Of a stretch of 58,367 nucleotides of DNA, positions 999 to 49,884 are shown piece by piece. The stretch spans positions 1 to 58,367 of the forward strand of contig CAZQHE010000005.1 of assembly GCA_964593155.1 (NCBI GenBank), in the 5' to 3' direction. The notes beneath the pieces are model-generated. The model did not search any database, was not told the DNA's origin, and was given only the letters and a program-made list of their open reading frames with translations. The position numbers were made by a program, and so were the translations under genes. Within the stretch, counting starts at the first letter, position 1. Each line of letters begins with the position of its first letter. The DNA is from an uncultured bacterium (lineage in GTDB: Bacteria > Krumholzibacteriota > Krumholzibacteriia > JAJRXK01).

Positions 999-1032
999 TC
1001 GGTGAGCGCTTCTCGACGGCGACGGGCCGATC

Positions 1033-4000
1033 GTGCACACTGGTCGGACCTGCGATCGCCTGTGCTCCCGGAAGGCACCCGCGTTCGTGCGACCCGAGAA
1101 ACTCCGTCCGAAGCGCTCCGCCGTCCGCCGCGTCGAGCGGATCCTGCGCGACGAACTCGGCTGGCTGCGCGGTTTTCCCACCGCCGACGGCCGCTGGTGC
1201 ACGGTGCCTCCGGCGGCACCCAGTGGGACGATCGACCTCGACGACGGAACGCTGCACGCGACCCGGGCCCGCGTGGTGTCGCTGCACAACGAGTTCCCGC
1301 GCGCGCTGCCGGAGGTCGTGGACGACGCCGACGCGTGGTGCACCGCGACCTTCGATCTGCTGACGGCGATCGACGGCATCCGCCGCGGTCGGCGGATCGA
1401 GCGGCCGGTCCCGCCGCTCGCCCCCGAACTGCCCGCCGACGACCCGCTGCGCGACGTCCACGACGCGCTGGTGTGGAGCCATGCCCTGCACCCGAGAACG
1501 GCGCGGGTGCACTGGAAGTGGATCCTGGACCACCGCACGCTGCTCGCTCGCAGCCGTGCGTGGGTGCCCGACGACGATCCGGTGTGGATCCTGCGCCTGG
1601 CGCAGTGGGCGCGGGAACTCGGCCGCAAGCACGCGACCACCGTGGCCGCTTTCCTGGCCGACCCCGGCCGCATGCCCTGGCGCACGGACGAAGCCCGTGA
1701 ATTCCTCGTCCCGGTCCTCCAGGCCGGGGCGCGACAGCTCGACCCGGACAAGGTCGCCTGTTCCCGGGGCCGGCGCACCGTGCCCGAGCTGCGCCGTGTG
1801 CTCGATCGCATGGCCGCGGTGCCGCGCCGGACTCGCAAGCAGCTGCTGCGACTGCTCGCGGTGCTCACCCCCGAGGACGGAACCGACGACGACACGATCG
1901 GCCCGTGGGCGGAGGCGTTGCACCTGCGAGAGGCGCGGACCCGGTGGTATCGCGCCCGCATGCGCCGCGAACCCGAGTCCCCCGGGGCGGAGGCCGAATT
2001 CGAGGCCCTCGACGCTCTGCGCGAGCGATCCGAGCATTTCCCCCATCGGGTGCTCACGAATCTCGAACAGGAGTTCGAGGCCCTGGGCACGAGCAGATAC
2101 GAGGCCCGGCTCGAACCCATGATCCGTACGCTGTCGGCCGTGCCGGCCACGTCGGGATTCCGGTGGACCCTGCTCGGCGCCTTCGTCGGCGCGTTCCGAT
2201 CGTCGTGGTCGCCCGACCCGGTGCGCCTCGAGGAGACCTGGATCCGGGCGCTCCCCGATCTGTGGCGACGGTGGACGGCCGCCAGCGGCGGACGGACACC
2301 CGGCTGGCAACCGTGGTGGGACGCGTACCTCGGAGACTCCGACGACGCTGGTCCCGAGGACTGGGTCTCGTACCTCGATGAGGTTTCCACACTCGAGTCC
2401 TGCCTCGAACTCCTTCGCGCCCAGGACCGGCTGCCCCCCGAAGAGGACTTCGGTCGGATCGAGTGCTACGCGCGGTTCGTGCCCCGGTCGATCCTCACGG
2501 AGGTCTACGCATCCGGCAGTTCTCGCGAGTGCGATTGGTTGGGCCGGAAGACCGGGGCCGTCGCCGCAGTCCTGCTCGGTGAGAACGCGCGTAGCTGGAG
2601 GGCGCTGCTGCGCGCGCCGTGTCCCGACGACGAGGCAGCAGCCGTCGCCCTGCTCCGCGCCCTGCACGGGACGGTCGACGGGTCGACCTTCCACGAACGT
2701 GCGATCCCCGCCCTCGCCGAGGCGACCGATCGCGAGGTCGAGCACGCCGCGGCACTGGCTCGCCTCGTCGGAACGGCGCACGCGCGGGTCGAAGTCCGCG
2801 ACGCCCCACCCGTCGATCTCGGCGTCGCCCTCCCGGCTCCGCTGCGGCGCGCGGTCGACACCCTGGCGGCGTGGGATCCGCAGGCGGGACGTACGGCGCG
2901 TCGGATCCTGCGCAAGGACCGGCCCGACCCCGCCGAACTCCGGCGCCGGATCGAGGCCCTGGAGGCCCGCGCCCCGTTGACCGAAGCGCAGCGCCGACGG
3001 GTCGACAGATGGCGTCACTACCTCGAACAGCCGCCCCCGATCTCCGAGGCGCGCGTGGGCAACCTCGTGGCCAGGTTCGAACGCGCGACGCACCGGGCCT
3101 TCCTGCGGCGCTGGATCGACGACCGACACGCTGCGGCGCGAGCACGTCTGGAGCGATGGTTGGGGCGCAGCGTCGATTGGTTCGACGACGTCGACGTCGT
3201 GCTCGGGATCGCGGAAACGCGGTCTCTCGAATCGTCGACGCGTGACGTGGCCTGGCGGATCCTGACCGTGCGTGCGGGCGAGCCGCCGTGGGACCTGCGC
3301 GGCCACGCGGCGAACCGGAGGTTCCTGCGCGAGGCGGCGGCGCACGGGGTTCGCGTGGACCCCTGGGTCGACCGCGCGCCGGTTCGTGTCGTCGACGTGG
3401 GCCACCGTGGGACCCTCCGCGCGACGATCGAACGCGACCCCCTGCAACTGCTCCACATGGGGCGGTGGTTCGACACGTGTCTCGCTCCGAGCGAACCCAA
3501 CTACTTCTCCGTCTTCGCGAACATCGCCGACGTCAACAAGCAGGTGGTCTACGCCCGCGACGGGCGTGGGCGTGTCGTCGGTCGCGTGCTGGTGGCTCTG
3601 ACGCGCAGCTTCGGTCTGCTCTCGTTCCATCCGTATGCACACGACGCCCGCGTCCGTTCCCTCCTGGAGGAGTACGTGATCGCGCTGGCCGAGACGCTGG
3701 ACGTGCCGGTGGTCGCTCGCGGCGAGGTCGAGTCGTTGGTCGCGCGGTCCTGGTACGACGACGGTCCGGAGTCCCCGTGCGAGCCCGACCCCGTGTTCGA
3801 CGACGACTCGGACTTTCGTCGGGCCCTGGCGGAGACCGACGACCCGCGCGACCTGATCGCACGGTTCCTCGGGCCGGAGCCGCGCCCGGAGGACCTGGCG
3901 CGGGTGCTGGAACTGCCCGAATCCGAGGAGCGCCCGGAGATCGCGGTGGCCGTCGCCGACTTTCCGCCCGACCGGATGTTCCTCGTCCCACTCGCCCTGC

Positions 4001-4338
4001 AACTGCTCGAGGTCGGACACGTGGAGCGGGCGGCACGCCTGCGCGATCCCCTGGTGTCTCTCCTTCGGGAGAGTGGTCGGACCGGATACGCGGACCAGTC
4101 ACGGGCCTGGACGGCGCTCGGCCGCATCGATCCGTACCGAGCGCTCCGTCTGCTCCGCGAGTTGGAGCGGGGCCGCCCGGATCCCGAGGACCACGAGACC
4201 CACTCCTCCGTGTGGATCCGGGTCCGCCTGCTGCGGCGGCTCGGCCGTCTCCGCAAGGCCGCGCGGGTGATCGACTGGGCCGTGGCAGCGGGTGTCTTCG
4301 ACGACGCCGACGCCGACCGGATCCGTCGCGTGCCCTAG
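1033..4338 (+). CDS. large hypothetical protein (1,101 aa), no domain recognised
   Basis: Long ORF with balanced, protein-like composition rich in Trp, Leu, Asp, Glu and Arg. The competing antisense ORFs (883..4020, 369..2390) are Arg/Gly/Pro/Ser junk. No Walker, nuclease or other catalytic motif recognised. Confidence 0.6.
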   Translation: MHTGRTCDRLCSRKAPAFVRPEKLRPKRSAVRRVERILRDELGWLRGFPTADGRWCTVPPAAPSGTIDLDDGTLHATRARVVSLHNEFPRALPEVVDDADAWCTATFDLLTAIDGIRRGRRIERPVPPLAPELPADDPLRDVHDALVWSHALHPRTARVHWKWILDHRTLLARSRAWVPDDDPVWILRLAQWARELGRKHATTVAAFLADPGRMPWRTDEAREFLVPVLQAGARQLDPDKVACSRGRRTVPELRRVLDRMAAVPRRTRKQLLRLLAVLTPEDGTDDDTIGPWAEALHLREARTRWYRARMRREPESPGAEAEFEALDALRERSEHFPHRVLTNLEQEFEALGTSRYEARLEPMIRTLSAVPATSGFRWTLLGAFVGAFRSSWSPDPVRLEETWIRALPDLWRRWTAASGGRTPGWQPWWDAYLGDSDDAGPEDWVSYLDEVSTLESCLELLRAQDRLPPEEDFGRIECYARFVPRSILTEVYASGSSRECDWLGRKTGAVAAVLLGENARSWRALLRAPCPDDEAAAVALLRALHGTVDGSTFHERAIPALAEATDREVEHAAALARLVGTAHARVEVRDAPPVDLGVALPAPLRRAVDTLAAWDPQAGRTARRILRKDRPDPAELRRRIEALEARAPLTEAQRRRVDRWRHYLEQPPPISEARVGNLVARFERATHRAFLRRWIDDRHAAARARLERWLGRSVDWFDDVDVVLGIAETRSLESSTRDVAWRILTVRAGEPPWDLRGHAANRRFLREAAAHGVRVDPWVDRAPVRVVDVGHRGTLRATIERDPLQLLHMGRWFDTCLAPSEPNYFSVFANIADVNKQVVYARDGRGRVVGRVLVALTRSFGLLSFHPYAHDARVRSLLEEYVIALAETLDVPVVARGEVESLVARSWYDDGPESPCEPDPVFDDDSDFRRALAETDDPRDLIARFLGPEPRPEDLARVLELPESEERPEIAVAVADFPPDRMFLVPLALQLLEVGHVERAARLRDPLVSLLRESGRTGYADQSRAWTALGRIDPYRALRLLRELERGRPDPEDHETHSSVWIRVRLLRRLGRLRKAARVIDWAVAAGVFDDADADRIRRVP

Positions 4339-8183: not shown

Positions 8184-8386
8184 CGAAGGGCCTTTCGTGG
8201 GGCGATCCGCGCGATCGGTGCGCGAGGGCCGGAGGCGGGTCGCCGGGGTCTCGGTCGATGGACGGTCGATCCTAGTGCCCCGGCGGCGTCGATTCCAGCG
8301 CGGAAGCGGGAACCGACGCCGACAGCCGACCGCGCCGGATCGCACGATCTGGTATCCTCGCGGTGGAACCGTCGAAGGAGGACGTG

Positions 8387-9577
8387 ATGCGCTGGTGGCT
8401 GTTGCTCCTCGTCGTCGCGGGGTCGGCCGACGCCCTCGCGGCTCCCTACGCCGTGGGCGTGTCCGACATCGCGTTCGTCGATGCCGATCGTGACGGGCGT
8501 TCGGTCCCCACCGACCTCTACTACCCGGCGGCCACGGCCGGGACCGACGTTCCGGTGGCCGGAACGGACGGAGAACGCTTTCCCGTGGTCGTGCTCGGCC
8601 ACGGCTACCAGATCCCCGCCGATCGCTACGGCTGGATCGCCACCCGGCTGGCGTCGAGCGGGTTCGTGGTCGCCGCCCCGCGCACGGCCGGCGAACTCTT
8701 CCCGTCGCACGAGCAGTTCGGGCTCGATCTCGCCTTCGTGGTGCGCGCCCTGCGCGAGGCGGGCGACGATCCCCAGTCCCTCTTCGCCGATCGTATCGCC
8801 CCGACCGCGGCCGTGGCCGGTCACAGCATGGGAGGCGGCGCGTCGTTCCTGGCCGCGGCGAGTGACGCGTCGATCACTGCAGTCGTCAACTTCGCCGCCG
8901 CCGAGACGGATCCCTCGGCGATCGCGGCCTGCGGGCAGCTCGTCCGGCACGTGCTCATGTTCGCCGCCACCGACGACTGCGTGACCCCGCCGGCCGATCA
9001 CCAGATCCCCATGTTCCAGGCGCTGCTCGAGGGCGACCGCACGCTGGTGAGCATCGACGGCGCGAGTCACTGCCAGTTCGCCGAGTCGAGCTTCCTGTGC
9101 GAACTCGGTGAGTTCTGTTCGCCGTCGATCTCGCGGACCGAGCAGCACGACCTGACCTGGTTCCTGCTCGAGCCCTGGCTTCGGGGCATCCTGCGCGACG
9201 AGCACGATCAGCGGGCCCTGTTCCAGAACCGACTCGAAGAGCAGGCCGGGATCTCGTTCCTGCAGGCGGGCATCCCCGTCGACGCACCGGCCGCAGCGGA
9301 CCGTGCTCCGCGGCTGCGCGTGAGTCCGAATCCCTTCAACCCGGCCACCGAGATCCGGTTCGTGCTGCCGAATGCCACGACCGTTCAGCTCGACGTGTTC
9401 GCCGTCGACGGCCGCCACGTGCGGAGCCTGGTCTCGGACGACCGGGCCGCTGGTTCGCACACCGTGAGGTGGGACGGGCACGACGACGCGGGACGGAGCC
9501 TGGCCTCGGGCACCTACCGCGTCCTCCTACGAGCCGACGACCGGGTGCGGTCGCGCGCGGTGACCCTCCTGAAGTGA
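8387..9577 (+). CDS. secreted cutinase/PETase-like alpha/beta (dienelactone-type) hydrolase with C-terminal FlgD-Ig-like / T9SS-type sorting domain
   Basis: Signal peptide MRWWLLLLVVAGSADALA. Nucleophile elbow G-H-S-M-G-G (Ser about nt 8825). Candidate catalytic Asp in ATDDCVTP and His in DGASHCQF. The last about 85 aa (SPNPFNPATEIRF...GTYRVLL...VTLLK) match the Por_Secre_tail / FlgD Ig-like beta-sandwich. Confidence 0.75.
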   Translation: MRWWLLLLVVAGSADALAAPYAVGVSDIAFVDADRDGRSVPTDLYYPAATAGTDVPVAGTDGERFPVVVLGHGYQIPADRYGWIATRLASSGFVVAAPRTAGELFPSHEQFGLDLAFVVRALREAGDDPQSLFADRIAPTAAVAGHSMGGGASFLAAASDASITAVVNFAAAETDPSAIAACGQLVRHVLMFAATDDCVTPPADHQIPMFQALLEGDRTLVSIDGASHCQFAESSFLCELGEFCSPSISRTEQHDLTWFLLEPWLRGILRDEHDQRALFQNRLEEQAGISFLQAGIPVDAPAAADRAPRLRVSPNPFNPATEIRFVLPNATTVQLDVFAVDGRHVRSLVSDDRAAGSHTVRWDGHDDAGRSLASGTYRVLLRADDRVRSRAVTLLK

Positions 9578-9614: not shown

Positions 9615-10805
9615 TCAGCGTGATCCGTGGGGTTCCGGCTCCGTGAGGATCGGGAAGTACTTGATCACCAGCAGGTAGATCGTCCCCTGGATCGCGATCA
9701 GCCCGACCGTGGCGACCAGTTCCACCACGCTCGGGAAGTACACCGCACCGACGCCACCGTCGAAGGCGAGCCATCCGGCGTTCATGCGGTACATGGCGCC
9801 ACCCAACAGGATGAAGCACGCCATCCGGAACATGCACGACGGTCGCTCGCGCCGGGACTTGTCGACGATCATCGCCACACCTGGTACGAAGACGAAGGCC
9901 AGCTCCAGGATCACCAACCAGCTCTGCCAGCTGCCGTCGAACAGACGCATGAACTGGTCGCGCCAGATCAGGTCGCCCACCCGCAGTGCGCCGAAGAACA
10001 GGATGACGTAGGCCATGAAGTGTGCGAGGCGCGTGAGCGTGTGGTCGTAGTTCGGGCGCCCGTAGCGGCGGCTGAACAGGATGTAGGTGGCGATCACCAT
10101 GGCGTAGCCCAGGATCCAGCAGCTCACCAGGAAGAGCGCCGGGATCAGCGGCGTGTACCAAAGCGGGTGGACCTTGTGGCCGGCCAGCAGGTACAGCGAG
10201 CCGAGCGAGCTCTGGTGCATGGTCGGAAGCAGGATCCCCATGGCGATGATCCACGGCATGATCGCGTGCAGGACCTTCATTGCCTTCTCGGAGAATGCGG
10301 CCAGGCGCTTGCGGCCCGACTTGCGCCAGCGCTCGAGGAAGGCCGGCGACAGTTCGATCCACACCACGGCCACGTAGGCGGTGACGCACAGCGACACCTC
10401 GAGCAGCACGCTGTCGAGGTTCCACTCGCCCCAGTAGACGAAGACTCTCCAGATGTTCCATGGGCGGCCGATGTCGGCGGTCAGCGAGATGATGCCGATG
10501 GTGTAGCCCACCGCACTGGTCAGGAGCGCGTGGCGGACGATGGGATGGTAGCGATAGTGGTTCAGGACGTAGGTCACGAAGGCCAGGGCGTAGCCGCCCG
10601 AGCCGAGGGCCGTCAACACGATCACGTTGAAGACCTTCCACGTGCCCCACGGGAAGACGTCGGTCATGTTGGTCATGGGACCGAGGCCGACGACGAAACG
10701 GATCGCGACCAGGAGCGTCGCGATCAGACCGATGACGACGAGGGTTCGGTATCCGGCTGTCCACACGGGTCGGTGGACCGGCTCGACGGGTTGATGCGCG
10801 GACAT
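9615..10805 (-). CDS. NrfD/HybB-family integral membrane quinol-interacting subunit (hydrogenase-2 cytochrome b / polysulfide reductase NrfD-like)
   Basis: Start at MSAHQPVEP (cat at 10803-10805). Near-colinear similarity to E. coli HybB (FPWGTWKVFNVIVLTALGSGGYALAFVTYVLN...LLPTMHQSSLGSLYLLAGHKVHPLW). The upstream extension of the ORF is low-complexity junk. Confidence 0.75.
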   Translation of the reverse strand: MSAHQPVEPVHRPVWTAGYRTLVVIGLIATLLVAIRFVVGLGPMTNMTDVFPWGTWKVFNVIVLTALGSGGYALAFVTYVLNHYRYHPIVRHALLTSAVGYTIGIISLTADIGRPWNIWRVFVYWGEWNLDSVLLEVSLCVTAYVAVVWIELSPAFLERWRKSGRKRLAAFSEKAMKVLHAIMPWIIAMGILLPTMHQSSLGSLYLLAGHKVHPLWYTPLIPALFLVSCWILGYAMVIATYILFSRRYGRPNYDHTLTRLAHFMAYVILFFGALRVGDLIWRDQFMRLFDGSWQSWLVILELAFVFVPGVAMIVDKSRRERPSCMFRMACFILLGGAMYRMNAGWLAFDGGVGAVYFPSVVELVATVGLIAIQGTIYLLVIKYFPILTEPEPHGSR

Positions 10806-11193: not shown

Positions 11194-12432
11194 ATGCCCA
11201 TGAAGCCACTGGCCCATTCCGAAGCCGTTCCCCACCGTGCCACGGTCGACGTCTTCGACAAGACCCGACGCTTCACCCGTGCGCGGGAAGCGATGGCTGC
11301 CGGCCTGTATCCCTACTTCCAGGCCATCTCCAGCTCGACCGCGAACACCGTACACATCGACGGCCACGAGCTGGTGATGGCCGGTTCGAACAACTACCTC
11401 GGCTACACGCACGACCCGCGCGTGATCGAAGCGGCCGAGTCGGCGGCCCGCACGTGGGGAACCGGCTGCACGGGAAGTCGATTCCTGAACGGCACGCTGT
11501 CGATGCACGAGGAGCTGGAGCGCGAACTGGCCGAGTTCTGTGGCAAGGCAGCAGCTCTGGTCTTCTCGACGGGTTTCCAGACCAATCTCGGGGTCATCAG
11601 TAGTCTCGCCGGCCGCGGCGACGTGATCTTCACCGACAAGCTCGACCACGCCAGCATCATCGATGGCTGCCGGCTGTCCTACGCCGACGTCCATCGCTTC
11701 GACCACAACGACGTCGAAGCGTTACGCCGCCTCCTGATGAAGGCGCCTCCGGAGGCGGGCAAGCTGGTCGTGGTCGACGGCGTCTTCTCGATGGAGGGCG
11801 ATCTGTCGCCCCTCGAGGAGATCGTTCCGCTGTGTCAGGAGTTCGGTGCGCGGATCGTGGTCGACGAGGCCCACGCGGTGGGAGTCCTCGGCGAGACCGG
11901 CGTGGGGGCGAGCGAAGAGCTCGGCGTGCTCGACGAGGTCGATCTGCTGATCGGGACGTTCTCCAAGGCCTTCTCCTCGATCGGCGGCTTCGTGGCCGGC
12001 GACGACGAAGTGCTCCACTACGTGAAACACCACGCTCGCAGCCTGATCTTCAGTGCGAGCATGCCGCCCTACGCGCTGGCCACGGTGCTCAAGTGCCTGG
12101 AGTTGATGCGCGAGGAGCCCGAGCGCAGGGTGCGCGTGCGCACCCACGCGAACTACGTGAACGCGCAGTTGCGGGCCATGGGCTTCGACACCGGCCGGTC
12201 GATCACGCCGGTGGTGCCCGTGGTGATCGGCGAGAGCGACCGCACCTTCATGTTCTGGAAGCGTCTGTTCGCCGAGGGCGTCTTCACCAACCCGGTGGTT
12301 CCGCCCGCCGTGCCCGAGGGCGGATGCCTGATCCGGACCTCCTACATGGCCACCCACACCGAGGAACACCTCGATCGCGTGCTGTCGGCCTTCCGCACCG
12401 TCGGCCGCGAGTTCGGAATGATCGACGGATAG
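11194..12432 (+). CDS. alpha-oxoamine synthase family PLP enzyme, serine palmitoyltransferase-like
   Basis: PLP-lysine motif GTFSKAFSSIGGF and the AOS-family fold (KBL/BioF/SPT). First gene of a four-gene co-directional cluster. Confidence 0.8.
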   Translation: MPMKPLAHSEAVPHRATVDVFDKTRRFTRAREAMAAGLYPYFQAISSSTANTVHIDGHELVMAGSNNYLGYTHDPRVIEAAESAARTWGTGCTGSRFLNGTLSMHEELERELAEFCGKAAALVFSTGFQTNLGVISSLAGRGDVIFTDKLDHASIIDGCRLSYADVHRFDHNDVEALRRLLMKAPPEAGKLVVVDGVFSMEGDLSPLEEIVPLCQEFGARIVVDEAHAVGVLGETGVGASEELGVLDEVDLLIGTFSKAFSSIGGFVAGDDEVLHYVKHHARSLIFSASMPPYALATVLKCLELMREEPERRVRVRTHANYVNAQLRAMGFDTGRSITPVVPVVIGESDRTFMFWKRLFAEGVFTNPVVPPAVPEGGCLIRTSYMATHTEEHLDRVLSAFRTVGREFGMIDG

Positions 12433-12465
12433 CCGGCCGGCCGGACCGAATGGGAAGGGGACGAG

Positions 12466-13599
12466 GTGGTGAACGTCGAGGTTCGTCCGGCCCGCGGGCG
12501 TGCCGAGCTCGAACGCTTCGCGCGCCTGCCGTGGACCATCTACGCCGACGATCCTGCGTGGGTCCCGCCGTTGATCCGCGACGTGGTCCGGACCTTCGAT
12601 CCCGCGCACAACCCCTTCTTCGAACACGGCGACATCGAGCCCCTGTTGGCACACCGCGACGGCCGGGTCGTCGGCCGCATCGCGGCGATCCGCAACCAGA
12701 ACCACGAGCGTACGTGGAACGACGGCTGCGGCTTCTTCGGCTTCTTCGAGTCGATCGACGACACGAACGTCGCGGCCGCCCTGGTCGAGGCGGCCCGCGT
12801 ACGATGCCGCGACCTGGGTCTGCGGACGATGCGCGGTCCGGTGAACCCGTCGACCAACGACGAGTGCGGCGTGCTGGTCGACGGCTTCGACAGTCCACCC
12901 GCCGTGCTCATGCCGCATTCCCGCCCTTACTACGATCGCCTCCTGGGCGAGGCCGGTCTGAGCAAGGCCAGGGATCTACTCGCCTACTGGCTCGACGCGC
13001 CACCCGAAGGTGCGCCGGATCGCTTGCGGCGAGCCGCGGACATCGCCCGCGCGCGCAACCCCGAGGTCAACTTCCGTGCCTTCCGCAAGAAGGACTTCGA
13101 CGCCGAGGTCGAGCGTTTCAAGTCGGTGTACAACGCGGCGTGGAAGGAGAACTGGGGCTTCGTGCCGATGACCGACGCCGAGATCGACCACATGGCCGCG
13201 TCGCTGCGGCAGGTCCTCGATCCCGGTCTGGTGCGCATCGCCGAGCACGGCGACCGCACGGTGGCCTTCGCCCTGGCCCTGCCCGACATGAACCAGGCCC
13301 TGCGCCACGCGAACGGGCGGCTCTTCCCCTTCGGACTGCTGAAGGTGCTGTGGCATTCCCGGCGCATCGACGCCGCCCGTGTGCTCGTGCTGGGTGTGGT
13401 CGACGAGTACCGCGGGCGCGGGCTCGACGCCGTGCTCTACGCGGATCTCTACGACCACGGAGCGAGCATCGGGTTGCGAGGGGCGGAATTGTCGTGGGTC
13501 CTCGAGGACAACCATGCGATCCGCAAACCGATCGAAGGGGCCATGGGAGCGCGCCCGTACAAGACGTACCGCATCTACGAGATGTCGATCGGAGGCTGA
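12466..13599 (+). CDS. two-lobed GNAT-fold N-acyltransferase, bacterial ceramide synthase (bCerS)-like
   Basis: 377 aa. GNAT-like C-terminal half (VLGVVDEYRGRGLDAVLYADLY). Sits between the SPT-like gene and the CerR-like reductase gene, as in described bacterial ceramide loci. Confidence 0.6.
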   Translation: MVNVEVRPARGRAELERFARLPWTIYADDPAWVPPLIRDVVRTFDPAHNPFFEHGDIEPLLAHRDGRVVGRIAAIRNQNHERTWNDGCGFFGFFESIDDTNVAAALVEAARVRCRDLGLRTMRGPVNPSTNDECGVLVDGFDSPPAVLMPHSRPYYDRLLGEAGLSKARDLLAYWLDAPPEGAPDRLRRAADIARARNPEVNFRAFRKKDFDAEVERFKSVYNAAWKENWGFVPMTDAEIDHMAASLRQVLDPGLVRIAEHGDRTVAFALALPDMNQALRHANGRLFPFGLLKVLWHSRRIDAARVLVLGVVDEYRGRGLDAVLYADLYDHGASIGLRGAELSWVLEDNHAIRKPIEGAMGARPYKTYRIYEMSIGG

Positions 13600-13602
13600 G
13601 AC

Positions 13603-14595
13603 GTGACCGCTCCGGTGCTGGTGACGGGCGCGAACGGCTTCGTGGGCTCGCACGTGGTCGACGAGTTGTTGCGCCGTGGCGTGCCGGTGCGGGCGGCGGT
13701 GCGGCCGAGCAGTCGGGTCGAGGATCTTCCTTGCGATCGCGTGGACCTGCGGCGCGTCGACTACTCCGAGCCCGGGTCCGTCGAGACGCTGGTCGACGGC
13801 ACACGGGGCGTGATCCACGTGGCCGGAGCAACCCGTGCCGGGAGCGAGGCCGCCTACGAGCAGGCGAACGTGCAGACCACCCGGACTCTGGTCGAGGCCT
13901 GCGTGCGTTCCCCGCAGATCTCCGACGGTTTCGTCCTGGTCAGCAGTCTGGCCGCGGCGGGGCCGAGCACGCGCGATCGCGCGCGCGACGAGGCCCAGCC
14001 GGAGCGGCCGATCTCGGCCTACGGGCGGAGCAAGCTGCGCGCGGAGACCGCGGTGCGGGAGCTGGCCGGCGACCGTCTCGCGTGGTCGATCCTGCGCCCG
14101 CCCGCCGTCTTCGGTCCCCGCGACCGCGACTTCCTGCGGCTGGCGCGCATGGTCGACCGGGGGTGGGCCCCTCGCCTGGGCTCGCTGCCGCAGAGGCTCT
14201 CGGTGATCCACGTCCACGATCTGGCCCGGGCGCTCGTCGACGTGCTCGGCGATCCGCGGGCCGTGGGCCGCACGTGGTTCGTGGCCGATCCGGCACCGAC
14301 CGACTGGGACGAGATCGTCGACGTCCTGGCCGCCGCGTTGCAGCGCCACCCGCACCGGATCCCGGTTGCGACCGGATTGCTCCCCGTGGTCGCGGGAGTG
14401 TCGTCGGTGATCGGCCGGCTCGCGCGTCGACCGGGTCCGCTGCCGGCCGACCGGGTCGCCGACCTTCGCGCCGAGGCCTGGACCTGCTCGCCGGTGCGCA
14501 TCGCGCACGAACTCGGATTCCGACCGACGGTGACCCTGCGCGAGGGTCTGCACGCGACGGTCCGCTGGTATCGCGACCACGGATGGCTGTCGTGA
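13603..14595 (+). CDS. NAD(P)-dependent epimerase/dehydratase-family SDR reductase, CerR-like
   Basis: GTG start 7 nt after a GGAGG. Rossmann motif TGANGFVGSHVV and catalytic YGRSK (YxxxK). Confidence 0.7.
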   Translation: MTAPVLVTGANGFVGSHVVDELLRRGVPVRAAVRPSSRVEDLPCDRVDLRRVDYSEPGSVETLVDGTRGVIHVAGATRAGSEAAYEQANVQTTRTLVEACVRSPQISDGFVLVSSLAAAGPSTRDRARDEAQPERPISAYGRSKLRAETAVRELAGDRLAWSILRPPAVFGPRDRDFLRLARMVDRGWAPRLGSLPQRLSVIHVHDLARALVDVLGDPRAVGRTWFVADPAPTDWDEIVDVLAAALQRHPHRIPVATGLLPVVAGVSSVIGRLARRPGPLPADRVADLRAEAWTCSPVRIAHELGFRPTVTLREGLHATVRWYRDHGWLS

Positions 14596-15530
14596 CCGGG
14601 GTGGATCGTTCGATCGGAGACTTCGGACCGGGGCCCCGGCCCGTCGAGTGGGTCCTCTGCGTGTACCTGGTCGTGACCGCGGTGCTGCTGGTGTTCGGCG
14701 AGCGCACGCTGCCGCATGCCTTCCTGCGTGCCGGCCTGCACGTGGCCGCCGTCGGTGCGATCGTCCTGATGGCGCGCGCCGAGTCGAGGGTGCCCCCCGT
14801 CGTGGCCCTGATCCGCCGCGTCTTCCCACTCGTCCTCGGGCCGCTCTTCTACCTCGAGATCGGTGTGCTCAACGACGTGATCTGGGGCGAGCGCTACTTC
14901 GATTCCTGCGTCGTGGCCGTCGAGAGGGCCCTCTTCGGTGTGGACACCTCGCAGGTCTTCGCTCGCGCGTGGCCGTGGGCCTGGTGGTCGGAACTCCTGC
15001 ACCTCGGGTACGGGTCGTACTACGCGTTGCCCGCGTCGTTGTTCGTGGTGCTGGCCGTGCGGAGGAAGTGGGCCGAGCTCGAGTGGTACCTGACCGTGCT
15101 CGCGTTGACCTTCACGTCGTGCCAGATCTGGTTCGTGCTCCTGCCGGTGACCGGTCCGTACCACTACTTCGGCCCGCTCGATCCGCCGGCTCCGGGGTCG
15201 TTCTTCCCGCCGCTGGTGAACTCGATCGTCAGCGGCGGGTCGTCGATCGGTACGGCGTTCCCATCGAGCCACGTGGCCGTGGCGTTCTGCGTGCTGGCGT
15301 GTGCGTGGAGAACCGACCGGACCACCGCCTGGGTGCTGGCCGTCCTCGTCACGCTGCTCACCGTGGGCACCGTGTACGGAGGCTTCCACTATCTCGTCGA
15401 CACGATCGCCGGCATCCTGTGGTGCGCGGTGACGTTCACGTTGGGGTCGTGGTTGCACCGGTGGCTGCGGGAGCGTCGTCTCACACCCCGACGCGCCGGT
15501 AGGCCCCGTAGTAGGCCTGCCGCTCGCTGA
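14583..15530 (+). CDS. PAP2-superfamily integral membrane protein (inositol-phosphoceramide / sphingomyelin-synthase-like head-group transferase or lipid phosphatase)
   Basis: Start MAVVTGV overlaps the previous stop by 13 nt. Multiple TM helices. PAP2 motifs C2 (PSSHVAV) and C3 (YGGFHYLVDTIAG). Only the last about 316 codons of the 1,232-aa tool ORF are credible. Confidence 0.65.
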   Translation: MAVVTGVDRSIGDFGPGPRPVEWVLCVYLVVTAVLLVFGERTLPHAFLRAGLHVAAVGAIVLMARAESRVPPVVALIRRVFPLVLGPLFYLEIGVLNDVIWGERYFDSCVVAVERALFGVDTSQVFARAWPWAWWSELLHLGYGSYYALPASLFVVLAVRRKWAELEWYLTVLALTFTSCQIWFVLLPVTGPYHYFGPLDPPAPGSFFPPLVNSIVSGGSSIGTAFPSSHVAVAFCVLACAWRTDRTTAWVLAVLVTLLTVGTVYGGFHYLVDTIAGILWCAVTFTLGSWLHRWLRERRLTPRRAGRPRSRPAAR

Positions 15531-16944
15531 TCTCCGAGGCCACGGCGAGGGCCCAGGCTCCCCACGCGGCGGCGAGCAGGGCCGTGGCTGGCCAGGCGAC
15601 CATGGCTCCCAGCGACGCGAGGACGAGGGTCAGCGTGGCCGCCACGGCGAGTCCCATACCCAGCGGAGTGGGGCCGAGCCGAGTGAGTTCGGCGTCGCGG
15701 CGACGCACGCGCACGCGATGTCCCAGCCCGAGTCGCAGTCCGATCCAGACGAACAGCAGGAGTGCGACCAGGCCCAGCGCCAGGGTCACCGCGGCCGAGG
15801 TCGGCAGCACGGTCGCCGGAGTCCGTGACCAGAGCAGCGCGTGCAGCGCGAGCCCGCCGGTCACGAGCGCGCTGGCCGTGAAGTTCACCGGGGTCAGGGC
15901 CGTGTTCCACACGGGAACGGTGCGCACGGTGTAGACCCTCGTCATGCCGAACAGATAGAGCGCCGCCGCGGGAAACGTGGACCAGGCGAAGACGGGCTCG
16001 CGGGTGGCGATCGCGGCCAGCGACGCGGCCAGGAATGTGACCGCCAGGAGGATCTCGCGGCTCAACCACGACTGACCGAGGTTGCGCAGCGCCCTCCATG
16101 CACGCACGGGCCGGCCGAGGTGGGCCGACGAGAGGGCCAGGGCGGCGAGCAGGAGCACGGCGGTGGCCGGCATGGCCACGCGGTCGACGGCGGCCGGATC
16201 GAAGGCCGGGCCTCGCGTCGACTCCTCGCTCAGGACCGCGCGCAGAAGGCCGGCTACGAGCGCGATGCCGGCGGCCATCTGCGACAGCAGCGTGAAGGCC
16301 ACCAGCGACCACTCGCGCAGGCCGCGCGCGGGTCGTGGCGTGAGGTCGGTGTCGGGCTCGTCGGAGCGGTCACTCGCCGCGTGCGGTGCCAGGTGCAGGG
16401 CGGGTTCGGTGAGGTTCACCGGAGGCAGCGGCGCGCTGCCGACCGCCATGTCGGGGGCGCCGTGCCGTGCGGTCAGGTCCTCGGGATCGCCGGCATCGAG
16501 CGCGCGTACGGGGCAGGCCTCCACGCAGGCGGGATCACGACCCTGCTCGAGGTCTTCGACGCAGAAGGTGCACTTGCTCATGGTGCCGAGCGTGTCGCTG
16601 TACTGCGGTGCGCTGTAGGGGCACACCCAGCCGCAGTAGCCACAGCCGAGACAATGCTCTGGATCGATCAGCACGATCCCGTCGTCACGCCGCACGATCG
16701 CCCGCGCGGGGCACCCTTCCAGGCAGATCGGCCTCTCGCAGTGGTTGCACGAGATCGACAGGTGGTAGGCGAACACGTCCTGCCGCCAGGCCGCGCCCTC
16801 GCGGATCCATCCGCCACCGGCCACCTCGGACACGCGACGCCACAGGCGGCCGACCTCGAGGTCGTTGCGATCCTTGCACGCCACCTGACAGGCCTTGCAG
16901 CCCGAGCAGGTGGAGGCGTCGAACCAGAAGGTCGTCCGGCGCAT
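15481..16944 (-). CDS. DmsB-like four-cluster [4Fe-4S] ferredoxin subunit fused to DmsC-like membrane anchor
   Basis: Start MRRTTFWFDASTCSGCKACQVACKD. Four Cys clusters (CSGCKAC, CNHCERPIC, CLGCGYCGWVC, CTFCVEDL...CVEACP) are followed by about 8 hydrophobic helices. Its ATG overlaps the stop of the upstream gene (ATGA at 16944). Confidence 0.8.
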   Translation of the reverse strand: MRRTTFWFDASTCSGCKACQVACKDRNDLEVGRLWRRVSEVAGGGWIREGAAWRQDVFAYHLSISCNHCERPICLEGCPARAIVRRDDGIVLIDPEHCLGCGYCGWVCPYSAPQYSDTLGTMSKCTFCVEDLEQGRDPACVEACPVRALDAGDPEDLTARHGAPDMAVGSAPLPPVNLTEPALHLAPHAASDRSDEPDTDLTPRPARGLREWSLVAFTLLSQMAAGIALVAGLLRAVLSEESTRGPAFDPAAVDRVAMPATAVLLLAALALSSAHLGRPVRAWRALRNLGQSWLSREILLAVTFLAASLAAIATREPVFAWSTFPAAALYLFGMTRVYTVRTVPVWNTALTPVNFTASALVTGGLALHALLWSRTPATVLPTSAAVTLALGLVALLLFVWIGLRLGLGHRVRVRRRDAELTRLGPTPLGMGLAVAATLTLVLASLGAMVAWPATALLAAAWGAWALAVASEISERQAYYGAYRRVGV

Positions 16945-19226
16945 CAGGATCGTTCCTCCACGCGGGCCACCTGCACCTGGGCCGTCTGCAGGGCGGCGCC
17001 GAAGGCGTAGGGCGTCCAGCGCTCGGACGTGAGCACGTTCACCGAGCCGCGCCGGTCGATCCCGTTCTCGTCGGGGGTCCACCAGCTTCCCTGCGGCAGG
17101 TTCACCACGCCCGGCAGGATGCGACGCGTGATCGCACACGGAATGCGGGTCTCGCCGCGGTGGTTGAACACGCGGACCTCGTCGCCGTCGAGCAGACCGC
17201 GCTCGGCGGCATCGATCGGATGGATCCACAGCCGCTGCGGATGGGCCTCGCGCAGCCAGTCGTTGTTGTCGTGCGTCGAGTGCACCCGCGCCAGCGTGTG
17301 GTTGGCGATGCACTGCAGCGGATGACGTTCGGCCTCGTCGCCGAAGGGGCTCTCCCATTCCTGGACGTACTTGGGAACCGCGGGCGCGACGTCGGGTCGG
17401 CCGAAGTGGTGCATGGCCAGCGAGAAGAGTTCGATCTTCCCCGAAGGCGTGGTCAGCGGATGCGCCTCGGGGTCACGGCGGAAGTCCTCGAGGGCGACGA
17501 TCGGCTCGGTGACCGGCGTCGACCACGCGCCGACGTTCTGCTCGACCATCTCCTCGAAGTCGGGCAGGTCGGGCAGCCAGCGTTCGCGGTAGCGATCGAA
17601 GATCCACTTCGTCCACGCGCGCTCGTCGCGGCCTTCGGTGTAGTCCTCGCCCACGCCCAGGCGCTCCGCCAGATCGGCGGCGATGCGGTAGTCGCTCCTC
17701 GACTCGCCCAGCGGCTCGACGACCTGCGGCATCAGGATGACTTCCTGGCCGTACTTCCAGCCGTCCTCCAGTCCCCAGGTCTCGAACTGCGTGCAGGCGG
17801 GCAGCACCAGATCGGCGAAGCGGGCACTGGGCGTGAGGAAGTTGTCCTGGACGACCAGGAACTCGACCTTCGAGGTGTCGCGCAGCAATTCGCCGGTGCG
17901 GTTGAGGTCGCCGTGCTGGTTGGCGAGGATGTTCGACGCGACCGACCAGATCAGCTTGACGTCGCTCTCGAGCGTGTCGACGCCACGAGCGTCGAGCCCG
18001 CGCACGCCGTGGTCGCGGCCCATGCGGCGGCCCTCGCGGATGGCCTCGGTCCACAGGAAACACGGGATGTCGAGGCCGTAGTCGTTGGTGCCGGTGGGGA
18101 AGGCGTTCCAGAAGGGTCCGGCGGTCGGGGCGACCGACAGGCCGCTCGTCCACGCGCCGTGCACGCCCACGTTGCCGGTGATCGCGGCCAGGGCCATGCC
18201 CGCGCGCACGACCTGTTCGCCGTAGGCGCGGCGCTGCATGGCGTAGCCCTGGTACAGCACGCCCGGTTTGATCGTGGCGTACTCGCGGGCCAGGCGCACG
18301 ATGGTGTCGACGGGAACGGCGGTGATTTCCGAGGCCCACTGTGGGGTCTTCGGCGTGCCGTCGCGCGTGCCGAGGACGTAGTCGGTGTACGACTCGGCCC
18401 CGGCGGCCTCGGCCGGCATCTGTGTGGCGTCGAATCCCGAGCAGCAGCGGTCGACGAAGTCGCGGTCGTGTAGTTCCTCGTCGAGGATCACGTGGGCCAT
18501 GGCGGTCATCAGCGCCGTGTCGGTGCCCGGGCGCAGCGGGATCCACTCGTCGGCCAGGCTCGCGGTGCTCGGCGTGTGGCGGGGGTCGATGCACACCACG
18601 CGCGCGCCGCGTTCGCGGGCCTTCATCACGAAGTAGTCGCTGTTCGTGCCGTCGCGGGCCTCGGCCGGGTTCCATCCCCACATGAGGATCAGCTTGGCGT
18701 TCAGCCAGTCCTGGCGCTCGTTGCCGCACTTCGTGGTGCCGACCGTGTCGGGAGTGGCGATGTTGGTCGCGCCCCAGCTGTAGCTGTTGTAGATGCCGAG
18801 CTGGCCACCGATGCAGTTGAACAGGCGGCGCGCCGTCTGCGAGCCCGTGGTCTGTCCGTAGCCGCCGGTGCCGTAGGGTACGAAGAGCGCACCGTTGCCG
18901 TACTCGGCGCGGATGCGGCCGATCTCGGATGCGAACTCGTCGAGGGCGTCGTCCCACGACACGGGTTCGAAGGATCCGCTGCCGCGCGGGCCGGTGCGGC
19001 GCAGGGGCTGCGTCAGGCGATCGGGATGGTTCTGCCGCCGCAGGTAGGCACGGCCGCGCGTGCAGGCACGAAGACGCGGATTCGCGATCGGATGCTCGGG
19101 CCGGTCGTCGGTCTCGATCCGCACGATCTGCCCGTCGCGCACGTGGGCGCGCAACAGACATCGCCCGCCACAGTTGTGGGCGGGGCAGCCGGTGCGGACG
19201 ACGGTGGTGCCGCCTTCGGCGGTCAT
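16944..19226 (-). CDS. DMSO-reductase-family molybdopterin oxidoreductase catalytic subunit (DmsA-like), no Tat signal peptide
   Basis: Start MTAEGGTTVVRTGCPAHNCGGRC (N-terminal FS0 Cys motif). Colinear similarity to E. coli DmsA (CTRGRAYLRRQNHPDRLTQP, IDPRHT, LTTPSGKIELFS). No twin-arginine leader appears before the Cys motif. Confidence 0.85.
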   Translation of the reverse strand: MTAEGGTTVVRTGCPAHNCGGRCLLRAHVRDGQIVRIETDDRPEHPIANPRLRACTRGRAYLRRQNHPDRLTQPLRRTGPRGSGSFEPVSWDDALDEFASEIGRIRAEYGNGALFVPYGTGGYGQTTGSQTARRLFNCIGGQLGIYNSYSWGATNIATPDTVGTTKCGNERQDWLNAKLILMWGWNPAEARDGTNSDYFVMKARERGARVVCIDPRHTPSTASLADEWIPLRPGTDTALMTAMAHVILDEELHDRDFVDRCCSGFDATQMPAEAAGAESYTDYVLGTRDGTPKTPQWASEITAVPVDTIVRLAREYATIKPGVLYQGYAMQRRAYGEQVVRAGMALAAITGNVGVHGAWTSGLSVAPTAGPFWNAFPTGTNDYGLDIPCFLWTEAIREGRRMGRDHGVRGLDARGVDTLESDVKLIWSVASNILANQHGDLNRTGELLRDTSKVEFLVVQDNFLTPSARFADLVLPACTQFETWGLEDGWKYGQEVILMPQVVEPLGESRSDYRIAADLAERLGVGEDYTEGRDERAWTKWIFDRYRERWLPDLPDFEEMVEQNVGAWSTPVTEPIVALEDFRRDPEAHPLTTPSGKIELFSLAMHHFGRPDVAPAVPKYVQEWESPFGDEAERHPLQCIANHTLARVHSTHDNNDWLREAHPQRLWIHPIDAAERGLLDGDEVRVFNHRGETRIPCAITRRILPGVVNLPQGSWWTPDENGIDRRGSVNVLTSERWTPYAFGAALQTAQVQVARVEERS

Positions 19227-19329
19227 GCGGGGCCTCGGGGCTCGGGCGGGTTCCGGGAACGGATCGAGTATCGGAGTCGATCGCGGCGGGCTCAACCGGG
19301 TGGCGGCCCAGGTCACGATTCTGGGGGCG

Positions 19330-20508
19330 TCACCGTCGGGTGCTCGGGGTCGGGAGTGCGACCACACCCCGCGGGGCGAGGCTGGCGGCCAGCATGACGG
19401 TGTCGATGTCCTCGTGCTCACGCCACGCACGGCTGTCCCGGGCTTCCGCGGACCGCCAGAACGACTCGATGGTCTCGCGCAGGGCAACGAAGTCCGCCAG
19501 GGCGGGGAAACGGTCCTGGACCGCCGCCAGACCGATGGACAGTCCGAACTCACGGAAGGCCAGTCGGGTCTCGGCCGGACCCGTCAGGCCCAGACGCCGC
19601 GGCCCGATCACGAGACCCGCGCGTGCCGACGAGAGCAGGTCGGCGTTGAGGGGATCGTCGGGATCGATCTGATCGAGGTGGACGAGGTCGAGGAGCAGAC
19701 CACCGATACCGAGCGGATCGGTCGTGGCCAGTCCGCGTACGTCGATCATGTCCCGCAGTTGTTCGGCGATCGCGGTGAGGGTCGGCGCTTCGGGATCGTC
19801 GCCGAGGGCGTGACGGGTGGCCTCGAGCTGGCGCGCCGTGACGTGGCCGTCGAGCGGATCGTGCTGGCCGGTCGACGGGACCAGCGGCCGCGACAGGTCG
19901 ATGCTCATCTTCCACGCCAGCGCCGGTCGGCCGAAGGGCGTGTCGCGGCGGCCGAACGCCTGCACGGCGGTCTCGCACAGTTCGCGCGACCAGCGGGCGT
20001 ATCGCAGCTCGCCCGTGGTGCGCGCGGCACGGTCCAGCGCCTGCATCCAGCGCGTGAGGTAGTGGAAGTACTGTCCGTCGCGATCCCACTCCTCCTGTGG
20101 GTCGAAGGCATCGTGCCGTCCGCGCTCGGGGCGCTCCTTGCCGATCCGCAGGCCACCGCGTGTGGGATGGAGTTCGCCCTCGGCATCGTCCAGGCCGCTC
20201 AGCCAGCCCTGACGACGGTCGTCGTCGCGATGCCGGCCCAGCACGCGGTGGACCTGGTCGATCAGGGTGAGGGCGCGCGAACGGAATCGCGTGTCGCCGG
20301 TGTGTTCGTACAGACCGAGGTCGGTCATCACCGCGAAGGCGTCGGTCCACAGGTACCGGCGCGGCGGGTCCGACGACGTCACACCCGTGCGGTCGGCGAA
20401 TCGATCGAGGAGGTCGACGGCTTCGAGCAATCGCGGGTCGGGCACGACGGGCTCCTTCGTGGAGGAACGCAGCGTGCCCAGCCTGTGGCTCGGGAGCGGG
20501 CGGCGCAT
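19330..20508 (-). CDS. hypothetical protein, first gene of the molybdoenzyme operon
   Basis: About 390 aa of good composition (YLWTDAFAV, GQYFHYLTRWMQALDRA). Same strand as dmsA and 104 nt upstream of it. No family recognised; a six-hairpin glycosidase-like fold is a guess. Confidence 0.55.
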   Translation of the reverse strand: MRRPLPSHRLGTLRSSTKEPVVPDPRLLEAVDLLDRFADRTGVTSSDPPRRYLWTDAFAVMTDLGLYEHTGDTRFRSRALTLIDQVHRVLGRHRDDDRRQGWLSGLDDAEGELHPTRGGLRIGKERPERGRHDAFDPQEEWDRDGQYFHYLTRWMQALDRAARTTGELRYARWSRELCETAVQAFGRRDTPFGRPALAWKMSIDLSRPLVPSTGQHDPLDGHVTARQLEATRHALGDDPEAPTLTAIAEQLRDMIDVRGLATTDPLGIGGLLLDLVHLDQIDPDDPLNADLLSSARAGLVIGPRRLGLTGPAETRLAFREFGLSIGLAAVQDRFPALADFVALRETIESFWRSAEARDSRAWREHEDIDTVMLAASLAPRGVVALPTPSTRR

Positions 20509-20569
20509 CGGGGGCATTCCGACCACAGCGGTGGTCCGCCCCCGAGGCGATGGCGTCGGGGCGGGTCGC

Positions 20570-27912: not shown

Positions 27913-28303
27913 CAAGTCACCATAATCGACGTAGTCGAAGTGATTGCAGGGAGTTCGCGCGGCCGTGCGCCGGAATCACGGCCAGGGCGCCACGATCGTG
28001 CGGAACTTCTGCAAACTTCCCTTGAAACTCTCACGCGAGATGTCAGAGTCACTGGCGTCTGACGTCGTATCGGAGATTTCTGCGCCTCCATGCCGAACCC
28101 ATCGGGTTCGTTGCCCCCTCCGTGTGCCGGGCACGCGTAGGCGCGGGCTGGCCGTGTCACGAGCGCCGGCGTCCAATGCCGAAGCGCGCGTCGGAAATTC
28201 GTCTTCGAAGCGGCCGCGAGCGATCTCCCGCTGTTCGAGCGGGACCCGTCCGCATGACGGGACAGCCCGGCACGATCGCTCGCCGGCGACCCTCAACGAA
28301 TGG

Positions 28304-34675: not shown

Positions 34676-34863
34676 GGTCGGTCACCGGGTCCGGGGTATC
34701 GCAACTCTGCCGACATATGGCAATCCGGGTCCCCGGTGTGCTCCTCGGCACAATTCCACACTTGAGGCCCTGAGCCTTTCCCCGACCCTTTCGGGAGGAC
34801 CTCGCGCCGCGAACGACGGAGACTCCCTGCCGTCGACGTCCGCATCCGCTCAGGAGGCTCGAC

Positions 34864-36264: not shown

Positions 36265-36400
36265 CGCCGAGCGAACGCGATGGGGACTCGTCCCGACCGG
36301 CACCGGGGCGAGTCCCGACGAGAAGACGGAAGGCTTCCCCGGAGGACGAACCCACGGGTTTGCCCAGGTTGGAACCCAGACCACTCGAACGGAGGATCCG

Positions 36401-36772: not shown

Positions 36773-36773
36773 C

Positions 36774-39653: not shown

Positions 39654-39904
39654 GGCGTTCTCTCCTCGCGTGTGCACGGAGGGAGGGTCGCTTCCGGCCG
39701 GATCGGATCCCATCGGTCCCGCGAACGACGCCGGCCTGCGACGACGCACTGGATCCCGATGGGGGATCGCCCCACCCGGACGATCACCGGCCCCAAACGA
39801 CCAGAGAAATGGCCAGGGCGGCCAGCCCTCCCCCAACAGCAGGCGGTGGTTGCGGTACCAGGCCACGCCGCGGAGCCGCTCGGTCTCCTCGCGCCACAGC
39901 CGCG

Positions 39905-47389: not shown

Positions 47390-47486
47390 AGGGCCGAGGA
47401 AACATTCCCGATGCAAGCAGGGCACGGGCTGACCCAACGTTCGAACGAAGGGAGTTCTCGGAGAACCCCGGAACAGGAGGACAGTC

Positions 47487-49718: not shown

Positions 49719-49884
49719 CGGGCGTCTCGGGACTCGGGGCTGGGGTGGAGGGAGTGGCCTTGCTCTCGCCCGGCATTGTAGCCTGATCCGCGTCCCGTTG
49801 CAGGCCCGGGTGCGCCGTCGCGCCGGCGCTGGCCCGGAGGTGAGCCTCGCGCCGGCGCGGGGCGGTCGCGGCGCATTATCCGGA

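Follow-up and report, generated by a model that had tools for sequence, protein, structure and literature searches.

A pathway to ceramide has been reported from Caulobacter crescentus (Olea-Ozuna 2021; Stankeviciute 2022), with three enzymes: Spt (CC_1162), bCerS (CC_1154) and CerR (CC_1164). CC_1154, yghO of Escherichia coli (ECD_02850) and Swit_3908 are orthologous N-acyltransferases needed for dihydroceramide (PMC9386255), and the layout described for the Caulobacter genes CC_1152-CC_1168 (PMC11324152) matches that of the E. coli and Sphingomonas clusters. As to head groups, Caulobacter uses a ceramide kinase with the Cpg enzymes (PMC11324152), and BT_1522, the Aur1 homologue of Bacteroides thetaiotaomicron, is a proven phosphoinositol (PI)-dihydroceramide synthase (PMC9246714). 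Spt-like genes, many of them with co-localised bCerS and CerR, have been reported from 1,271 metagenome-assembled genomes (MAGs) of 38 phyla (Ding et al., ISME J 2024, PMC11334938). Here we take up a single piece of DNA, a contig of 58,367 nucleotides from an uncultured bacterium (CAZQHE010000005.1; by the window we mean the whole of it), and ask one question of it: do the four adjacent genes at 11194-15530 amount to a complete set of instructions for a sphingolipid with a head group? We argue that they probably do. In the order in which they are read, genes 1 to 4 encode an alpha-oxoamine synthase (AOS) that resembles serine palmitoyltransferase (SPT), an acyltransferase that resembles bCerS, a reductase that resembles CerR and a membrane protein that resembles yeast Aur1, and we hold with good confidence that together they form a single operon for the de novo synthesis of a phosphosphingolipid.

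Gene 1 is an SPT-like AOS, and it looks to be of the Cytophaga-Flavobacterium-Bacteroides (CFB) type, which uses acyl-CoA. Pfam sees in it Aminotran_1_2 (4e-56), and its best NCBIfam model is SPT-CFB (504.5 bits), ahead of those for the beta-proteobacterial SPT (423), BioF (401) and Kbl (373). In a phmmer search of the PDB, the SPT of Sphingobacterium multivorum came first at 406 bits and the Sphingomonas SPTs followed at about 297; the enzymes that are not SPTs lay lower, with Kbl at about 250, cysteate acyltransferase (CFAT) at 224 and 213, BioF at about 212 and ALAS at 201. Against the S. multivorum enzyme (SmSPT; 3a2b/8guh), 378 residues align with no gap at 48.7% identity, and alignments to it and to SpSPT show that the SPT catalytic set is kept: the pyridoxal phosphate (PLP) lysine of GTFSK, the histidine of DHAS, the aspartate and histidine of VDEAH and the arginine of LIR. 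A neighbor-joining tree tells the same story. On its SPT side stood gene 1, 18 AOSs from MAGs that adjoin a GNAT gene, the Rubrobacter and Streptomyces AOSs and the Spt proteins of Parabacteroides, Sphingobacterium, E. coli B and Sphingomonas, and the references that are not SPTs were BioF and Kbl of E. coli and two BioF proteins of Bacillales. The SPT-type sequences split from BioF and Kbl with 81% bootstrap, and gene 1 fell within the CFB-type clade, among the GNAT-adjacent AOSs and the Sphingobacterium and Parabacteroides SPTs, with 86%. In two complete E. coli chromosomes, which came from the plasmid collection, the best place for gene 1 was the spt of the yghO cluster (755796-756953; 2921220-2922377), above bioF and kbl. 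The initial annotation had called gene 1 serine-palmitoyltransferase-like, and both the scores and the tree put it with SPT and apart from BioF and Kbl. The idea that it might be a CFAT, serving a sulfonolipid, we rejected on the PDB scores.

Gene 2 is a bCerS-like N-acyltransferase of the bCerS/YghO/CC_1154 family, with two GNAT domains in tandem. Its relatives, more than 7,800 matches in a very large family, bear uninformative names; its Pfam matches (Acetyltransf_6/1) are weak, and as single sequence queries against the PDB neither it nor gene 4 returned anything useful. The comparison with bCerS, the crucial one for this gene, we ran by way of E. coli YghO, which a published list of orthologues links to CC_1154, and of a Sphingomonas cluster protein. 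A tblastn search of plasmid records with gene 2 led to E. coli yghO and to an "N-acetyltransferase" of Sphingomonas parapaucimobilis, and both of these lie within the canonical proteobacterial sphingolipid cluster (spt-acpR-cerR-aasR-lptF2/G2), which contains Spt, an acyl carrier protein (ACP), an NAD-dependent epimerase (CerR/epi) and a further copy each of LptF and LptG; the E. coli cluster has an acyl-AMP ligase too. From end to end gene 2 can be aligned with YghO (33% identity, blastp 5e-76) and with the Sphingomonas cluster acyltransferase (33%, 5.5e-69), and the alignment of its family matches YghO in hhalign with 100% probability (E 8.8e-77, 365 columns). These end-to-end alignments bear out the earlier suggestion that the GNAT protein is of bCerS type. 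The AlphaFold model of gene 2 (pLDDT 90.8) has the two-lobed, tandem-GNAT form with an acyl-CoA site, its nearest solved folds being MAB_4324, MshD and N-myristoyltransferase. We note in passing that homologues of this family on Roseomonas plasmids, about 41% identical to gene 2, are labelled "dATP pyrophosphohydrolase" in several records, which is probably a misannotation that has been propagated.

For gene 3 we propose a CerR-like extended short-chain dehydrogenase/reductase (SDR), whose substrate would be the 3-oxo group of either the long-chain base or an oxo-ceramide. It carries the extended-SDR motifs TGxxGxxG (as TGANGFVG) and YxxxK (as YGRSK), and Pfam assigns it to Epimerase/3Beta_HSD (4e-30 for Epimerase). 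Over its full length it matches by blastp the E. coli epi/CerR homologue (29%, 7e-38) and a CerR-like protein of Sphingomonas (32%, 1e-29); its identity to the cluster CerRs is thus only 29-32%, and its best NCBIfam match is HpnA, at 115 bits. E. coli has many extended SDRs, yet gene 3 strongly matches only one of them: at E<=1e-15 its sole place in the two whole chromosomes is epi, which has spt on one side and yghO on the other.

What, then, does gene 4 do? We propose that it is an Aur1-like polytopic membrane protein of the PAP2_3 family that transfers a phospho-head group to ceramide. Its membership of PAP2_3 is clear (62.8 bits against a Pfam cutoff of 27; 5e-17), and PAP2 proteins include ordinary lipid phosphatases, so that the main rival to our reading arises here: the trio would make dihydroceramide, and gene 4 would be a phosphatase for ceramide-1-phosphate, phosphatidylglycerophosphate, undecaprenyl-PP or lipid A 1-phosphate, in which case no phospho-head group would be added, or one would be removed. 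By sequence alone the best PDB match of the gene 4 profile is indeed LpxE (E 5.7e-5), with PgpB-type phosphatases next, and NCBI calls close relatives "phosphatase PAP2 family protein." These phosphatase matches cover the C2-C3 region alone, some 60-75 residues, whereas the family profile aligns with Aur1 across positions 16-289, about 275 positions, and pairs its motifs FPVxGPY, PSSH and FHYxxD with FPAAPPWY, PSLH and HHYFVD of Aur1. Across 33 homologues of gene 4, the invariant residues include H140, the PSSH motif (H230) and FHYxxD (H269, D273), and not one invariant lysine or arginine; the family therefore lacks both the C1 KxxxxxxRP motif and the C3 arginine of the PAP2 phosphatases. The sphingomyelin synthase (SMS) and Aur1 transferases likewise do without the phosphate-binding Lys/Arg motifs of the hydrolases. 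The predicted fold points the same way. When the AF2 model of gene 4 (pLDDT 93.1) was compared by Foldseek with the PDB, yeast Aur1 came first (9vj4_A, E 2.4e-5, TM-scores 0.61/0.68; 9ivc_A, E 4.2e-5) and human SMSr next, and the TM-scores to the phosphatases PgpB, LpxE and PhoN were 0.23-0.37. On this showing we regard the phosphatase reading as unlikely, and the initial suggestion of an Aur1- or SMS-like head-group enzyme gains from both the modelled fold and the motifs. Of the lysines and arginines in the loops of the model, 16 lie on what we take to be the cytoplasmic side and 4 on the opposite one, and by the positive-inside rule the catalytic motifs of our candidate transferase should therefore face the periplasm.

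If these four genes belong together, they should be found together elsewhere, and they are. We collected 80 loci from GTDB species representatives, each encoding a homologue of gene 2. An AOS lay on the same strand in 63 of them (within 400 nucleotides in 58), an SDR was present in 56 and the trio in 53; a PAP2 gene occurred in 19, without exception on the same strand, and all four genes in 16. So frequent a co-occurrence of AOS, SDR and PAP2 shows that the arrangement is not a matter of chance. The taxa include Eisenbacteria, Gemmatimonadota, Ignavibacteria, Zixibacteria, Binatia and Acidobacteriota, as well as Planctomycetota, Spirochaetia, Calditrichia, Anaerolineae, Verrucomicrobia and Bdellovibrionota, and the PAP2 gene accompanies the cluster in Eisenbacteria, Gemmatimonadota, Acidobacteriota and one actinomycete. 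PAP2 homologues that are 49%, 40% and 40% identical to gene 4 occupy the same slot in the operon, and one at 34% stands alone; in Acidobacteriota the order is SDR-PAP2-GNAT-SPT, with the SDR and PAP2 genes still adjacent. A literature search for SPT in Gemmatimonadota returned nothing relevant. For all four genes, what we have shown is homology, fold, motifs and the conservation of their synteny. In three related loci, major facilitator superfamily (MFS) transporters flank the four-gene operon (L002:13064-14497; L093:6881-8101; L094:994-2196 and 8217-9560), and one of these has a MlaEFD-like set some 3 kb downstream of the operon (L094:9826-12375); such genes may be partners in lipid export, and they are absent from the flanks of the operon in the window.

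Cultured bacteria also have the module. Aureispira anguillae has the trio, and Nonomuraea gerenzanensis, a monoderm actinomycete, has homologues of AOS, GNAT, SDR and PAP2 within 5 kb (NZ_LT559118.1, a whole-chromosome record unannotated in PLSDB; L098:3756-8466), the AOS appearing there as two high-scoring segment pairs and perhaps frameshifted. In a plasmid of Streptomyces sp. NBC_01001 (L085:4769-9295) a condensation-domain protein comes after the AOS-GNAT-SDR trio, and in plasmid 1 of Rubrobacter radiotolerans (L090:4908-10500) a protein of the lipoteichoic acid (LTA) synthase family does so, which suggests that the downstream chemistry in Actinomycetota is different. Contexts as varied as these, monoderms included, are what one would expect if the AOS-GNAT-SDR module made some specialised amino-alcohol lipid, akin to a secondary metabolite, and its link with membrane sphingolipids were a coincidence. 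We find this very improbable for the window: the fourth gene here encodes a membrane enzyme that resembles Aur1, many diderm phyla keep the module as what looks like a housekeeping operon, and the literature has the Caulobacter and E. coli B orthologues making ceramide.

A handful of our own results nonetheless tell against a phosphosphingolipid operon, and it is as well to set them side by side. Gene 1 falls short of the cutoff of the NCBIfam SPT equivalog (NF047600; 504.5 against 640 bits); for so distant a phylum a score below the cutoff is to be expected, and we therefore annotate gene 1 as SPT-like instead of as an equivalog. The comparison of gene 1 with CFAT was one of scores, the tree having BioF and Kbl as its references. 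An orphan AOS on a Priestia megaterium plasmid is 49.5% identical to gene 1 and has neither GNAT nor SDR neighbors; because it is as similar as the SPTs are, membership of the clade is by itself no proof of specificity for serine. Gene 3 has no visible signal peptide, and its Rossmann motif begins at residue 8; the CerR of Caulobacter has been reported to be periplasmic and associated with the inner membrane, by an export route that is unexplained (PMC11087976). Finally, the sequence similarity between the gene 4 profile and Aur1 is marginal (E 1.6e-3), so that its assignment rests on predicted structure, and on the NCBIfam model for PI-dihydroceramide synthase (NF052609) gene 4 scores 23.6 bits, in the C2-C3 region only, against a cutoff of 480, for which reason we do not class it as an inositol phosphorylceramide synthase. 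As for the orphan of P. megaterium (L088:5004-6218), it adjoins an acyltransferase and a methyltransferase, is as close to gene 1 as genuine SPTs are, and is a reminder that the SPT-like clade includes enzymes without an assigned role.

The points that concern gene 1 lend themselves to another reading, in which the AOS takes cysteate, alanine, glycine or lysine, and the product is a capnine-type sulfonolipid, a 1-deoxyceramide or some other N-acyl amino lipid. The substrate specificity of an AOS cannot be read from sequence, the shortfall against the SPT cutoff fits such a reading, and a study of the Black Sea has proposed Spt variants for other amino acids (PMC11334938). The initial annotation had kept a sulfonolipid or N-acyl amino-lipid pathway in reserve. 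We consider it quite unlikely. The CFATs score far below SPT, the catalytic residues of SPT are kept across a gapless alignment, and the partner genes are homologues of bCerS and CerR; moreover, an Aur1-type transferase would need a C1 hydroxyl, which serine alone would supply.

If we return, then, to a phosphosphingolipid, the pathway that we propose runs as follows. The Spt-like, PLP-dependent enzyme of gene 1, of the Sphingobacterium-like acyl-CoA type, would make 3-ketosphinganine by condensing L-serine and a long-chain acyl thioester; that no AcpR or AasR is found at the operon fits this type. The two-lobed GNAT of gene 2 would acylate the amino group from acyl-CoA, and the extended SDR of gene 3 would use NAD(P)H to reduce the 3-keto group, giving dihydroceramide. 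Gene 4, working at the periplasmic face with its His-His-Asp motifs, would take a phospho-head group from a glycerophospholipid and attach it to ceramide at the C1 hydroxyl, with release of diacylglycerol, by the mechanism of Aur1 and sphingomyelin synthase. N-acylation and 3-keto reduction may come in either order, as they may in Caulobacter. We infer the substrates, the order of the second and third steps, the product and the head group; for the last, phosphoethanolamine or phosphoglycerol is the most plausible in a bacterium, and phosphoinositol is possible.

The physical layout (Table 1) agrees with the description given in the initial annotation: the open reading frames are where it had placed them, four tightly packed genes all on the plus strand, and the translations contain every motif that it had quoted (GTFSKAFSSIGGF, TGANGFVGSHV, YGRSK, PSSHV and YGGFHYLVD). 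Its GGAGG before gene 3 and its overlap of 13 nucleotides between genes 3 and 4 are likewise there. Gene 3 starts 3 nucleotides after the stop of gene 2. Were gene 4 to begin at its alternative GTG, its overlap with gene 3 would become a 4-nucleotide GTGA, an SDR/PAP2 overlap that is found in the homologous loci L093 and L095. On either side lie respiratory genes that are unrelated and on the opposite strand, an NrfD gene upstream and, downstream, a DmsB/DmsC fusion with a molybdopterin oxidoreductase, so that the cluster is a self-contained unit of four genes. An Rfam scan of the window found no RNA element, a sigma-70 scan found no promoter or consensus, and terminator-like sites were at the level of chance. 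Among the other likely genes of the window that were scanned there was no ACP, acyl-ACP synthetase, Lpt paralogue, inositol-phosphate synthase or ceramide kinase. The NCBI relatives that are more than 90% identical to gene 2 and 80% identical to gene 4 bear the name Candidatus Krumholzibacteria, and among GTDB species representatives the nearest carries the label Candidatus Eisenbacteria.

Table 1. Positions in the window of the four genes, of one ribosome-binding site and of the flanking respiratory genes
Feature	Position	Strand	Details
Gene 1 (SPT-like AOS)	11194-12432	+	412 aa; alternative ATG starts at 11110 and 11200
Gene 2 (bCerS-like GNAT)	12466-13599	+	377 aa; GTG start
Gene 3 (CerR-like SDR)	13603-14595	+	330 aa; GTG start
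Gene 4 (Aur1-like PAP2_3)	14583-15530	+	315 aa; possible alternative GTG start at 14592
GGAGG ribosome-binding site of gene 3	13591-13595	+	inside the end of gene 2; read from sequence
DmsB-type 4Fe-4S protein fused to DmsC-like membrane anchor, adjoining molybdopterin oxidoreductase	15481-19553	-	
Separate NrfD-family membrane protein	9615-10790	-	other side of the sphingolipid operon

Other features of the window deserve a brief record. An Omp85-family protein at 48609-49940 (minus strand) supports a diderm envelope, and at 47433-48686 (plus strand) there is a cyclopropane-fatty-acyl-phospholipid synthase (CMAS, 9e-83). An encapsulin shell protein (Linocin_M18, 2.4e-75) is preceded on its own strand, at a distance of about 380 nucleotides, by a multihaem cytochrome c with Cytochrome_cB and MtrC-like domains, the two together at 34774-37571. 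At 8363-9577 lies a PETase-like or chlorophyllase-like alpha/beta hydrolase that ends in a FlgD-Ig domain of the type used as a secretion or sorting tag. A single stop-to-stop frame at 37641-40169 (minus strand) holds PCMT (protein isoaspartate methyltransferase) and erythromycin esterase domains, with a short match to a sodium:solute symporter at its start; it may represent one fused gene, or two or three neighbouring genes that share a frame. Three long open reading frames, at 1006-4338 (plus), 19330-20526 (minus) and 27944-29533 (plus), encoding 1110, 398 and 529 aa, have coding-like GC3, and Pfam matches none of them at 1e-4 to 1e-5.

One further locus leads us to a bolder thought about the family of gene 4. 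In the gut bacterium Bacteroides finegoldii (NZ_OY725910.1 82453-84416; L097:4964-6927), a gene for a CerR-like SDR and a PAP2 gene overlap by 10 nucleotides, and this PAP2 protein (WP_237923849.1) is a full-length member of the gene 4 family (hhalign 99.7%, E 9e-26) that goes unmatched by the NCBIfam model for PI-dihydroceramide synthase. The adjacency of SDR and PAP2 is thus seen in three settings: in the window, with an overlap; in Acidobacteriota, in a cluster that has been reordered; and in B. finegoldii, without the rest of the cluster. We had entertained the idea that the pairing is universal in Bacteroidales and rejected it, as the SDR of Parabacteroides distasonis has no PAP2 neighbor. 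Deletion of BT_1522 leaves phosphoethanolamine (PE)-dihydroceramide intact (PMC9246714), which makes the gene 4 family a candidate for the PE-ceramide synthase of Bacteroides. Literature searches, including searches for BT_0971/BT_0973, returned no discussion of the enzyme that makes the PE-dihydroceramide of Bacteroides or of the finegoldii pair. We therefore put forward, as a tentative proposal that we would not yet bet on, that the gene 4 family is a new bacterial ceramide phosphotransferase, for example a synthase of ceramide phosphoethanolamine or ceramide phosphoglycerol, distinct from BT_1522 and working at the periplasmic face of the inner membrane in functional coupling with a CerR-like reductase. 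Were it true, the missing head-group enzyme of PE-dihydroceramide in Bacteroides would have a name, and membranes with phosphosphingolipids would be predicted in Krumholzibacteriota, Eisenbacteria and Gemmatimonadota.

How much of this is new? The trio of genes 1 to 3 is the known bacterial ceramide pathway, and its spread over many uncultured phyla has already been published; the initial annotation, which had thought a phosphosphingolipid notable outside Bacteroidota, Sphingomonadales and Myxococcota, overstated its rarity, or was at least out of date, with 38 phyla already on record (PMC11334938). The "Spt-like clade B" loci of the Black Sea show the same co-localised trio in uncultured bacteria as our 80 loci do. 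That study sought Spt, bCerS and CerR only, and in those parts of it that were available to us the text is silent on any PAP2 or Aur1-like gene for a head group, and neither text nor supplement names Krumholzibacteriota, Eisenbacteria or Gemmatimonadota (PMC11334938). A literature search for PAP2 together with bacterial sphingolipid genes returned nothing relevant. What is new is that all four genes stand in one operon in this lineage, and that the PAP2_3 subfamily is distinct from BT_1522. The logic of the pathway was known before, and the value of the finding lies in annotation and in the discovery of enzymes, with no new principle. Still, the operon would be a compact cassette of four genes, independent of ACP, with which a heterologous host should be able to make a complex sphingolipid; it adds Krumholzibacteria-like, Eisenbacteria and Gemmatimonadota lineages, which have few or no cultured members, to those predicted to synthesise phosphosphingolipids; and its Aur1-like gene marks a bacterial PAP2_3 subfamily as tied to ceramide synthesis.

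Seen beside the systems with which we began, the locus is not of a new kind. With the clusters of Caulobacter, E. coli B and Sphingomonas it has the same three enzyme families in common, at full-length identities to the E. coli and Sphingomonas genes of 37-40% for gene 1, 33% for gene 2 and 29-32% for gene 3. Unlike those clusters, it has no AcpR, AasR or LptF2/G2 nearby, and its gene 1 is of the Sphingobacterium/Bacteroides type, not the rhodobacterial one. Where Caulobacter has a ceramide kinase and the Cpg enzymes, the window has an Aur1-like transferase, and its genes are all in the one operon of four. Gene 1 is 48-49% identical to the SPT of S. multivorum, without gaps and with the same catalytic residues, and both lack the Arg378 of the Sphingomonas enzyme; the sphingolipid genes of Bacteroidales, however, are dispersed (the SPT of Parabacteroides adjoins a gene of the diacylglycerol-kinase family), and those of the window form one operon. 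Gene 4 is like Aur1 and BT_1522 in its PAP2_3 family and in its PSxH and HYxxD motifs, and it has FPxxxPxY in common with Aur1 as well; yet its identity to the yeast protein is only 18-19%, it has no Kei1 partner, it lies outside the BT_1522 equivalog model, and the scan of the window met no genes for the synthesis of inositol. BT_1522 does provide a bacterial precedent for an Aur1 homologue that adds a phospho-head group to dihydroceramide.

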